From: Candidatus Altiarchaeota archaeon
Lineage (GTDB): Archaea; Altiarchaeota; Altiarchaeia; IMC4; QMZM01
Direction of reading: 5' to 3'
Assembly: GCA_016931955.1 (NCBI GenBank)
Contig: JAFGDV010000005.1
Span: forward strand, 1 to 23,996
Length of the DNA stretch: 23,996 nt
Part shown: positions 4,817-17,420 of the stretch, piece after piece
Layout of the letters: the number at the start of each line of letters is the position of its first letter
How positions within the stretch are numbered: position 1 is the stretch's first letter
Program-made: the position numbers and the translations under genes
Notes under the pieces: model-generated
What the model saw: only the letters and a program-made list of their open reading frames with translations
Databases searched by the model: none
Told to the model about the DNA's origin: nothing

Positions 4817-4843
4817 ATGTAATAGATTAAAATGAGGGATTAT

Positions 4844-14910: not shown

Positions 14911-15444
14911 GTGGATGACCCAGACTCTCTTCTAACACTGGTTTTAATAGCCATCATAGTGCTCATAGTAACCCGATACGACAGCAGGAGGGCGAATATC
15001 TCCTCCCTAGAATATAAGGTCTATTCTTGCGTGAACCTTGAGCGAACGCGGATGGGTCTGTCAGCCCTCGAATTAAACGATGCCATGTCGGACGTGGCTA
15101 GGAAGCACAGCAGGGACATGGCTCATAGATCCTATTTCTCCCACAAGAATCTAACAGGCGAATCACATTCAGAGAGGCTTGAAGGTGAGGACATACACGT
15201 AGAGGGGGTGTCGGCGGAAAACATAGCAAAGTATAGCATCGTCTCCTCCATAACACAACCAGATAACATAAAGTCCTACCGCTCCCTGGATGAGTTAGCG
15301 AAGGCAGTGGTGAGTGGATGGATGCACAGCACAGGCCACCGGAAGAACATAGGCAACGCTGATTTCAGGAATACGGGTATTGGAGTATCACTCGGCCTCG
15401 ACGGGGAAACATACTATTTCACTCAGGTCTTCACAGGCGGCTAG
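14911..15444 (+). CDS. CAP/SCP-domain protein with N-terminal membrane anchor
   Basis: VNLER..GL..L, ARKHSRDM...YFSH, AENIA, WMHSTGHRKNI, GIGV and YFTQVF, with a hydrophobic N-terminus. Confidence 0.92.
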   Translation: MDDPDSLLTLVLIAIIVLIVTRYDSRRANISSLEYKVYSCVNLERTRMGLSALELNDAMSDVARKHSRDMAHRSYFSHKNLTGESHSERLEGEDIHVEGVSAENIAKYSIVSSITQPDNIKSYRSLDELAKAVVSGWMHSTGHRKNIGNADFRNTGIGVSLGLDGETYYFTQVFTGG

Positions 15445-16391
15445 CTGCTCAGTATATGATCCACTTTCTCGATAAAACGCCAGCATATGATCAACTGCGC
15501 GAGGTTTGTTGAGGTGATGTATTCCCCCCCTTTGCTGAATAGGTGAGTTTCCTCCCTACCAGTATACGCGCTTATCTTCGCCTCAAGGCTCTCTACAACA
15601 TCCCTGTGAATCATCCCATCCATGGACAGTATCCCGACATTGTGTCCATAGTAGTCGTCTCTCTGGAACTCCAGGCTAAAGTTCTTCTTTGACAGTTGCA
15701 GGAGCGTTGATAAATCAATCGACAGGTTCATTTCACTCAACGGCACGTCCACTATCCTCTGCATAAGCCGTATAGAGTACACATCCGGCTCGGTATAACG
15801 AGATTCCTGGACCTGAATCAAGACCTCAGCGTATATCTTCTGAACGTCAACGTATTTCTCGTAGTCGGGCTCCCTTACCATCATCTCCTCCAGGACGTCT
15901 TCTTTTTTATGCCCCCTCTGCCCCACATCCCTTTTAATCTTCCACTTTCTCTTGACTCTGCGGTCAGGGTCGACGAAGATCTTAAAATCAGATAGTTCCC
16001 GCAATTCCTCGCTGAAGAAGGGATGCAGTCCTTCAATGATCACCACCTTTGTCGGCTTAAAGGGCACTGGTTCCCTGAATGTGCCGTCTGAGTGATCATA
16101 CACTGGCTTCATTATTTCACGGCCCCCCCTCAATTCGCCCAAATCTTGGACCAACCTGCCAAGATCGTTTGCCCCAGGATTCAGCGGCGTGACACCCTTC
16201 TCCTTCCTCTGTTTACGGTCAAGGGAGTGGTAGTCGTCCAGTGAAAAGGAGCTGACCAAGTCGTCACCAAGAATCCTTTTTATGCCTTCCACAAAAGTAG
16301 TCTTCCCCGACCCGCTGTCCCCAGCAACCCCCACAACAAATACCCTATCGGATCCAAACAGCCGTTCCTTAAAAGACATCCCATTAATCAT
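15441..16391 (-). CDS. prk: Phosphoribulokinase, archaeal type
   Basis: GVAGDSGSGKTT, LDDYHSLDR, TPLNP, KPVYDHSDG, EGLHP and KIKRDVGQRGH. DDYH..DR and EGLHP favour PRK over uridine kinase. Alternative start ATG 16379. Confidence 0.88.
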   Translation of the reverse strand: MINGMSFKERLFGSDRVFVVGVAGDSGSGKTTFVEGIKRILGDDLVSSFSLDDYHSLDRKQRKEKGVTPLNPGANDLGRLVQDLGELRGGREIMKPVYDHSDGTFREPVPFKPTKVVIIEGLHPFFSEELRELSDFKIFVDPDRRVKRKWKIKRDVGQRGHKKEDVLEEMMVREPDYEKYVDVQKIYAEVLIQVQESRYTEPDVYSIRLMQRIVDVPLSEMNLSIDLSTLLQLSKKNFSLEFQRDDYYGHNVGILSMDGMIHRDVVESLEAKISAYTGREETHLFSKGGEYITSTNLAQLIICWRFIEKVDHILSS

Positions 16392-16418: not shown

Positions 16419-16425
16419 TATTTAT
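16419..16425. promoter_or_regulatory. TATA-like element in the prk / small-Cys-protein divergent gap
   Basis: Reads TATTTAT on + and ATAAATA on -; it is 27 nt from prk ATG 16391 and 36 nt from ATG 16462. Confidence 0.45.
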
Positions 16426-16448: not shown

Positions 16449-16454
16449 GAGGTG
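16449..16454 (+). promoter_or_regulatory. Shine-Dalgarno site for the small 4-Cys ORF
   Basis: GAGGTG, 7 nt upstream of ATG 16462. Confidence 0.7.
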
Positions 16455-16461
16455 GTTTAGG

Positions 16462-16632
16462 ATGGATGTTGAGTACATCCTCAACGGCCCAGTTGGGGAG
16501 ACCTGCATCGACTGCGTTAATTTCAGGCATAACGTGGAGGATCCTTCCAAGGGGACATGCTTCGGCAGAGAGGTTGCCGCAACAGGCCGCTGCAAGTTTT
16601 TCAAGAAAAAAACAACTAGGGTTTCTCATTAA
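16462..16632 (+). CDS. Small (56 aa) four-cysteine putative metal/Fe-S-binding protein, not in the ORF track
   Basis: Hand translation: MDVEYILNGPVGETCIDCVNFRHNVEDPSKGTCFGREVAATGRCKFFKKKTTRVSH*. Pattern C15-x2-C18-x14-C33-x10-C44, strong SD, and it fills an otherwise empty 220-bp gap. Confidence 0.8.
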   Translation: MDVEYILNGPVGETCIDCVNFRHNVEDPSKGTCFGREVAATGRCKFFKKKTTRVSH

Positions 16633-16960
16633 GCGTGTAGCAGTTTCTGCCAGCATCTATTATGTAACCAACGTAGGGTTGATAGCTCAGCAGCGATAAT
16701 ATGAAAGAGGACCAGAAGCCTGCTTCAATCCCCCCAACCAGATCGTCTGCACACAACATCCCTTTCTCAGCCAATAGATGCCACACCTCCCTGATCCACT
16801 TGACATCGATGAACTCCGGCTCAGAGCTCTCCTTAGTCATCACAGAGACACCCTCATCAGAGAAATCCACTACAGTAACATCTCCGACTCCGCAGATCCT
16901 AACCACCTTATTAGCGGACAGAAAATCTTTTACATCACACCAAACATCCTGAAAATCCAT
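16616..16960 (-). CDS. Hypothetical protein (114 aa)
   Basis: Globular-looking ORF from ATG 16960 (MDFQDVW...), with TATTAATA 26 nt upstream. The ORF-track extension to 17062 would overlap the divergent gene. Confidence 0.7.
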   Translation of the reverse strand: MDFQDVWCDVKDFLSANKVVRICGVGDVTVVDFSDEGVSVMTKESSEPEFIDVKWIREVWHLLAEKGMLCADDLVGGIEAGFWSSFILSLLSYQPYVGYIIDAGRNCYTLNEKP

Positions 16961-16986
16961 GATATATAGAACAGGGGTTAAATAGG

Positions 16987-16994
16987 TATTAATA
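16987..16994. promoter_or_regulatory. Palindromic TATA box, possibly bidirectional
   Basis: TATTAATA is self-complementary and lies 26 nt from ATG 16960 (-) and 24 nt from ATG 17019 (+). Confidence 0.55.
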
Positions 16995-17018
16995 CAATTG
17001 ATTAACATGATCCACCCC

Positions 17019-17420
17019 ATGGGTGCGAATCTGCTGGCTCTGCTATGCATCACTGCAGGCATTCTGGGCCTGATAAGCGCATACTATGAGTGGAGCGGGG
17101 ATCCTAATGCACCAAGCTTCGTGAGAACAATACAGAACAAAGTCAACATAACAGCGTTGTGGAGTTTCATACTATCCATCCTACTCACCCTATTGGGTGT
17201 GGGCCTATGGCATATGGAGAGATGGGCTTGGAGCTTGGCCACCATAACAACACTAACAGGAGCCATCGGTTCCCTGGTAACCGCCAACGCAGGAACCTTC
17301 TTCATCAGCGTCTTCATCTTCCTCTACCTACTACATGCAAGGAAAGACTTCGAAATCCATGAAAGAAGCAGAGAAGACAAAAACGCCTGGGCAAACGCCC
17401 TAAAAAAACCCTACGAGTAA
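17019..17420 (+). CDS. Hypothetical membrane protein (about 4 TM helices)
   Basis: Hydrophobic helices with a GVGLWxxxxWAW segment; ends 7 nt before the glycosyltransferase. Start chosen by TATA spacing (alternative 17007). Confidence 0.75.
   Translation: MGANLLALLCITAGILGLISAYYEWSGDPNAPSFVRTIQNKVNITALWSFILSILLTLLGVGLWHMERWAWSLATITTLTGAIGSLVTANAGTFFISVFIFLYLLHARKDFEIHERSREDKNAWANALKKPYE

Follow-up and report, generated by a model that had tools for sequence, protein, structure and literature searches.

The 56-residue protein encoded head-to-head with the phosphoribulokinase gene (prk) of a Candidatus Altiarchaeota archaeon is probably a stand-alone, miniature and cytoplasmic member of the HiPIP superfamily, one that most likely holds a single [4Fe-4S] cluster and serves as a one-electron carrier, and whose gene lies beside prk as an isolated copy and by chance. 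The DNA that was analyzed (referred to below as the window) is the 23,996-nucleotide stretch at positions 1 to 23,996 of the forward strand of contig JAFGDV010000005.1, assembly GCA_016931955.1. The features that bear on the argument are the following (mini-gene and mini-protein refer to the last of these and to its product):

15441..16391, reverse strand: phosphoribulokinase gene, prk (PF00485, E 1.4e-47; NF005655, 311 bits against a cut-off of 236)
16419..16425, no strand assigned: TATTTAT, TATA-like, the sole AT-rich box in the spacer between the two genes (at 28-34 nt from the ATG of prk, and at 37-43 nt from that of the mini-gene)
16449..16454, forward strand: Shine-Dalgarno-like GAGGTG, 7 nt 5' of the mini-HiPIP ATG
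16462..16632, stop included, forward strand: mini-HiPIP open reading frame (ORF), 56 aa, with its ATG at 16462

The original prediction had pointed to this ORF, its GAGGTG Shine-Dalgarno (SD) site and its pattern of four cysteines, and direct reading of the window sequence bears out all three. The Cys spacing is C15-x2-C18-x14-C33-x10-C44 (in other words, CxxC-x14-C-x10-C), and GAGGTG presumably pairs with the 3' end of 16S rRNA. What had been described as one of the few clear SD sites is in fact the sole one: among the 23 window ORFs whose starts were checked, only the mini-HiPIP ORF has an SD match of at least 5 nt within 22 nt of its start. Most of the other ORFs in this set of 23 starts (for example those at 4832, 14911 and 18939) have no SD motif and are preceded, ~25-35 nt before the ATG, by an AT-rich TATA-like box, as expected of genes transcribed into leaderless archaeal mRNAs. 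The GC content of the mini-HiPIP ORF (0.49) is no different from that of the window (0.475).

An exhaustive phmmer search with the 56-residue window protein over 1.84 billion (1.84e9) representatives returned 41 matches at E<=1e-3, the best of which (P0002) stands at E 1.8e-16 and 65% identity. Thirty-eight of the 41 are small proteins (~50 aa; range 47-94 aa), and they cover query residues 1-50. This segment is the family-conserved core of the mini-protein; residues 51-56 are a basic, non-conserved tail. (The long matches P0031, P0033 and P0036 are repeat proteins of unrelated Pfam families, and were dropped.) The alignment of the window protein with its 38 small homologs (39 rows, designated A1, with P0031, P0033 and P0036 left out) has five columns that do not vary in any of the 39 rows, C15, C18, G31, C33 and C44, so that the four cysteines are kept without exception, and Y5, V38 and F47 are conserved in at least 90% of rows. 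A profile search with A1 extends the family to 86 proteins at E<=1e-3; a word-indexed protein search with the single window protein finds only the protein itself. Several of the profile matches are named by their sources as Chlorobiaceae or Chlorobaculum, one as Micrarchaeota and one as 'archaeon'. A subgroup of the family (P0018, P0041 and P0094, with one member source-named 'archaeon') has C-terminal tails of 10-45 residues that are rich in Lys, and the KKKTTRV tail of the window protein is similar to the beginning of that of P0094.

Judged by this conservation, the mini-HiPIP ORF is a real gene and a member of a family, because 38 small homologs share the invariant four-Cys pattern and the profile finds 86 proteins, some of them assigned by their sources to a cultured bacterium. 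That the ORF might be spurious, as its short length and the failure of the window protein itself to match any Pfam or NCBIfam model at E<=1 could suggest, is a reading that sequence conservation has already refuted in practice and that is practically out of the question.

Relationship of the mini-protein to HiPIPs

HiPIPs are known from textbooks as electron carriers in the periplasm of phototrophs and aerobes, and the typical HiPIP is made with a twin-arginine signal peptide that fits its periplasmic location. The relationship of the mini-protein to these proteins rests jointly on profile, fold and motif, since each of these lines is modest for a protein that is so short.

When the A1 profile is compared with the sequences of the PDB, the top places go to HiPIPs (1isu, E 1.9e-4; 1hlq, E 2.8e-4), followed by MasC (9o8u_C, E 0.015), more HiPIPs, PioC (E 0.09) and BssB (4pkf_B, E 0.6). 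All four cysteines align Cys-to-Cys with those of 1isu and 1hlq in these profile alignments, and Tyr5 of the family pairs with a Tyr in each of the three printed HiPIP alignments (1isu, 1hlq and 3h31). This aromatic residue ahead of the first Cys is the equivalent of Tyr19 in the Chromatium HiPIP numbering. Matches to Pfam models are weak: at E<=10, HIPIP (PF01355) is matched by 25 of the 39 A1 members with a best E of 5.4e-5, HPIP_like (PF18524) by 12, BssB_TutG (PF18512) by 4 and BssC_TutF (PF08201) by a single one. P0003 and P0045, at 14.7 and 15.3 bits, stay below the curated PF01355 cut-off of 22.

The AlphaFold2 model generated with A1 has a mean pLDDT of 86.2 and a pTM of 0.64. In a Foldseek search of the PDB with this predicted model, the ranks down to 21 are occupied entirely by HiPIPs or by the HiPIP-like small subunits of glycyl-radical enzymes. 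The leading match, 1isu_A, has prob 1.00, TMq 0.71, an rmsd of 1.9 over 53 columns and E 1.1e-2, Foldseek E-values here being only ~1e-2. VIA-align fits the predicted model to 1isu with an rmsd of 2.1 over 51 residues and Z 7.1, short of the 8 that VIA considers safe when models are short; the 19 chains that reach Z>=5 are, without exception, HiPIPs or BssB. Profile, predicted fold and motif are in agreement, and together they show the mini-protein to be a HiPIP-superfamily core with, as a predicted model, the HiPIP fold. The HiPIP-like four-Cys pattern that had been noticed in the letters alone is thereby upheld, as is its resemblance to the glycyl-radical-enzyme small subunits; when HiPIPs are weighed against those small subunits as matches, HiPIPs come out best.

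Only 4 residues precede the conserved Tyr in the chain of the mini-protein, which begins at the same position in 30 of 30 bacterial loci and consequently has no space for a leader of the Tat or Sec type. In contrast, an ordinary HiPIP found with the P0013 query in genome contigs (locus L008) bears a Tat leader, with the sequence RRKFL. (The other two loci from that search are spurious.) The absence of a signal peptide, which had been claimed for the window protein, can be extended to the family, no member of which has room for an export signal, and a cytoplasmic location would follow from it.

Comparison with known short HiPIPs brings out what is common and what is distinctive. The HiPIPs of Rhodocyclus tenuis (1isu, 62 aa), Rhodoferax fermentans (1hlq) and Rhodothermus marinus (3h31) have the same order of ligands, C-x2-C...C...C, and the same Tyr before the first Cys, and the predicted mini-protein fold fits the first of these well enough to give the TMq and Z values quoted above. 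On the other hand, the loop between Cys3 and Cys4 of the mini-protein is 3-4 residues shorter than in 1isu and 1hlq, the N-terminal segment as well as the Tat leader of the canonical proteins is missing (the mini-protein being presumably cytoplasmic), and the window protein lies below the level of detection by Pfam HIPIP. The hosts also differ: those of the mini-HiPIPs are anaerobes (an archaeon and green sulfur bacteria), whereas those of canonical HiPIPs are purple phototrophs or aerobes. PioC of Rhodopseudomonas palustris TIE-1 (6xyv), a minimal HiPIP of 54 residues, is similar in size to the mini-protein and matches its predicted fold with Z 4.0. PioC is exported, and is part of the pioABC operon for iron oxidation; the mini-HiPIP family, in contrast, is leaderless and has no conserved operon.

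In the explanation that is preferred here, C15, C18, C33 and C44 would be the ligands of one [4Fe-4S] cluster, Y5, F21, F34 and F46/F47 would shield it, and the mini-protein would act as a small soluble one-electron carrier, or a redox-active cluster protein, with a partner that is encoded elsewhere. Some considerations weigh against this explanation. The same four cysteines might accommodate a Zn site or some other cluster, and a high-potential cluster has no obvious job to do in the reducing cytoplasm of an anaerobe.

Distribution and gene context of the mini-gene

Some 860 genomes (~860) were sampled overall. Within the phylum of the window, searches with the single protein and with the profile find the mini-gene in 1 of 61 genomes, which is the window's own. 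It was not found in any of the other 60 (57-97% complete), in which a six-frame search with the single protein gave only chance-level matches (E 0.09-0.3), and it must therefore be dispensable there. The copy in the window is isolated and was probably acquired laterally.

Bacterial carriers come from 401 sampled genomes of the phylum to which a Bacteroidota MAG belongs: 42 of these, each of 2.0-3.3 Mb, have the mini-gene (E<=1e-5), and all 30 loci that were fetched from this sample encode Chlorobiaceae-type sequence. (The A1 profile has 0 matches at E<=1e-6 in 401 genomes of the Microbulbifer phylum, a result that is weak as a negative.) At 26 of the 30 bacterial loci uvrA lies divergently upstream of the mini-gene, and at 18 of the 30 a convergent gene for pyruvate-phosphate dikinase lies downstream; the neighbors in the remaining loci are a transposase, a PEP-CTERM protein, a methyltransferase, a solute-binding protein and a P-type ATPase. 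The adjacency to uvrA is limited to one class and can be explained by vertical inheritance. The bacterial mini-gene is, in short, monocistronic, held in place by descent, and without a conserved operon partner. Context outside this one bacterial class is provided by one metagenome contig and one fused protein. The contig, retrieved with the P0002 query, is 1.3 kb in length (short for context) and has the mini-gene after a Ser/Thr-kinase-like ORF; the fused protein, P0113, is considered below.

A promoter-like sequence, CTTTG ... TATATT, is conserved ~60-130 nt upstream of the mini-gene ATG in loci L014-L043, together with a long untranslated leader. A possible operator, the inverted repeat AAACTTT-N7-AAAGTTT, is seen in one bacterial subgroup, where it overlaps with the upstream hexamer.

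The fold and its ligand pattern are already known, and UniRef labels the Chlorobaculum parvum member of the family 'HiPIP'. A literature search at the level of titles and opening lines of abstracts turned up no paper that describes a free HiPIP of this size (~50 residues) and without a leader from green sulfur bacteria or archaea. What emerges is a leaderless, core-only HiPIP of ~50 residues that occurs mainly in green sulfur bacteria, has one fixed place in many genomes of that type and is sporadic in archaea; its gene can be skipped by gene callers because of its small size. If the interpretation is true, the HiPIP cluster environment is also put to use in the cytoplasm of strict anaerobes, a question that is testable since one member is assigned by its source to cultured Chlorobaculum parvum.

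A different function for the same mini-domain has to be considered. The mini-protein might be no carrier at all, and instead a domain stabilized by Zn or Fe-S that binds nucleic acid or a regulator by way of its basic tail, for example as a cluster-dependent sensor. The basic C-terminus (FFKKK...) and the long Lys-rich tails of P0018, P0041 and P0094 are consistent with this, but most members of the family are without such tails. The frequent divergence from uvrA (26/30) can also be cited for it, but is explained by descent within a single class. P0113 (379 aa, from one metagenome contig) consists of a YafY-type HTH-WYL-WCX regulator that is followed, in the same frame, by a complete mini-HiPIP, and thus joins a regulator to a full family member. 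However, this fusion amounts to one protein on one contig, and its mini-domain retains its own Met, so that it may be a case of two genes read as one, and not a true fusion. On balance the sensor function is unlikely.

Quite improbable, too, is a more ambitious construction, according to which the window protein is the archaeal outpost of a group of free cytoplasmic HiPIPs, the smallest stand-alone [4Fe-4S] proteins of this fold. These would have a fixed place in green-sulfur-bacterium-type genomes, would be scattered in DPANN-type and Altiarchaeota archaea, and would function in strict anaerobes as high-potential redox or oxidant sensors or as electron sinks; in the window, co-transcription with prk from a shared TATA element would tie the PRK-RuBisCO route to redox state.

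The mini-gene could also be cargo of a virus or mobile element, that is, a leaderless HiPIP of phage type that has become stranded in the chromosome. Two observations suggest this: the nearest clusters of the ESM Atlas (score 0.90, a lead only) are viral hypothetical proteins of 56-62 aa, and the mini-gene is both isolated (1/61 phylum genomes) and the sole SD-led gene of the window. Against it, tblastn finds no match in 50,697 phage records and 72,556 plasmids, four scans of viral contigs turned up one doubtful short ORF only (L059), neither the mini-protein nor its uncharacterized neighbors match a PHROG (weak PHROG matches are confined to 3 of the 39 A1 members), and the GC content of the ORF is that of its surroundings (0.49 vs 0.475). 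A viral origin is accordingly very improbable. The L059 ORF (4980-5138, + strand, of a 19.7-kb viral contig) has the pattern CxxC ... GNCF ... V ... C..F, and may be a distant phage relative.

The adjoining prk gene

The starts of prk and of the mini-gene are separated by a 70-bp spacer from which the two genes diverge on opposite strands. TATTTAT is placed between both ATGs and may therefore serve both directions, if it functions as a promoter element. The P-loop of the window PRK reads GDSGSGK, with Ser where plant PRK has its regulatory Cys. The sharing of a 70-bp divergent region with prk and the P-loop Ser had both been part of the original prediction, and both are confirmed in the sequence. 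What had been built upon them, namely that the mini-protein might be a redox or metal sensor or a partner of PRK in the manner of CP12, finds no support: none of the homologs in the loci examined is near prk, and the gene was not found in two relatives that have prk.

CP12 regulates PRK and GAPDH in plants and cyanobacteria, and is an intrinsically disordered protein with two disulfide pairs. As applied to the window, the analogy has the mini-protein sensing redox state or metal through its four cysteines and controlling a Cys-less archaeal PRK, in a role analogous to that of CP12 and with co-expression from the 70-bp region. The likeness lies in that both are small four-Cys proteins, and that the mini-gene here adjoins a PRK gene, head-to-head and with one TATA-like element in between. 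The replacement of the regulatory Cys of plant PRK and the presence, on another contig of the same genome (L056; G000:C17:4057-4890), of a gene for the RuBisCO large subunit can also be cited in its favor. The differences are more substantial. No CP12 family appears in the Pfam results (for the window protein at E<=1, or for A1 members at E<=10), and the fold matches of the mini-protein are HiPIPs; its predicted fold is a compact metal-cluster fold, and not that of a disordered CP12-like peptide.

Gene linkage speaks against the analogy. Marsh metagenome contigs of a ~95%-alike strain retain the start of prk, the spacer and the greater part of the mini-HiPIP ORF. (These come from metagenome runs X2-X5, in the form of short contigs of a 90-97%-alike relative, none of which covers the full stretch.) A ~95%-alike strain is at the same species level, however, so that it is not independent and carries no information on conserved linkage. 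Across the phylum, prk is present in 3 of 61 genomes and the mini-gene in only one. The genes found upstream of prk differ in the two relatives that were compared (their PRKs are 70-71% identical with that of the window): a genome of the same genus (73% complete) has a cupredoxin-like gene in place of the mini-gene, and a genome of the same family a nucleotidyltransferase-like gene. Conversely, a PRK-like gene is found at 0 of the 43 homolog context loci (283,617 bases, representing ~38 distinct gene places since five wide loci repeat narrow ones), in a search that recovered its positive controls L006 and L007, and no PRK over the curated NCBIfam cut-off is found in 5 carrier genomes. Because no homolog at these loci is near prk, the proposed link to PRK fails on synteny, which was among the checks that had been suggested for it.

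The adjacency to prk in the window thus looks like chance, and there is but a slight likelihood that the mini-protein controls PRK; adjacency alone gave rise to an idea that was attractive but unsupported. Chance placement of an isolated HiPIP-type carrier is accordingly the reading that is retained.

The cupredoxin-like gene of the same-genus genome (L007, 1782-2186, + strand) is divergent from prk; its product, of 134 aa, is a secreted protein that has a linker rich in Thr and a C-terminal motif that is, by eye, cupredoxin-like. It is thus a different small neighbor of redox type at the same place beside prk.

Glycyl-radical-enzyme subunits and flanking reading frames

The accessory small subunits of glycyl-radical enzymes (BssB/TutG, 4pkf_B; MasC, 9o8u_C; HpdC, 2y8n_B; also BssC) resemble the mini-protein in being leaderless and cytoplasmic, and in having a four-Cys fold of HiPIP type. 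That the mini-protein is itself such a subunit, BssB/BssC/MasC/HpdC-like, could be argued from the profile matches to MasC (E 0.015) and BssB (E 0.6), from the weak matches of A1 members to the corresponding Pfam models (HPIP_like, 12/39; BssB_TutG, 4/39; BssC_TutF, 1/39), and from fold matches with Z 5.2-5.3 to 4pkf_B and 9pzj_B. Nevertheless, canonical HiPIPs score better in every search, and the fold comparisons with BssB (Z 5.2-5.3) and with MasC and HpdC (Z 3.4-3.9) are weaker than those with true HiPIPs. Moreover, small subunits of this kind are obligate and are encoded beside their catalytic subunit, and the mini-gene has no such partner in the genomes examined. A PFL-like glycyl-radical catalytic subunit (PF02901) was found neither in the window's own genome (0/1, 92% complete) nor in the carrier genomes searched (0/5), and no gene for such an enzyme lies beside any copy of the mini-gene that was examined. 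Membership in this group of subunits is extremely unlikely, and a stand-alone HiPIP core continues to be the better description of the mini-protein.

Two reading frames flank the pair formed by prk and the mini-gene. The ORF at 16616-17062 (- strand) specifies 148 aa without a match in Pfam, NCBIfam or PHROG, and 17 nt at its 3' end are shared with the 3' end of the mini-gene. In a ~94%-alike contig from X5, two 1-nt insertions, at 16960 and 16964, lie beside the in-frame Met35 codon of this ORF, and its true start may therefore be at ~16960, for a protein of ~114 aa. On the other side, the ORF at 14911-15444 (+ strand) shares 4 nt with the 3' end of prk and specifies a CAP/SCP-domain protein (PF00188, E 5e-16) that also matches a PHROG designated 'sporulation protein' (E 2.9e-20).
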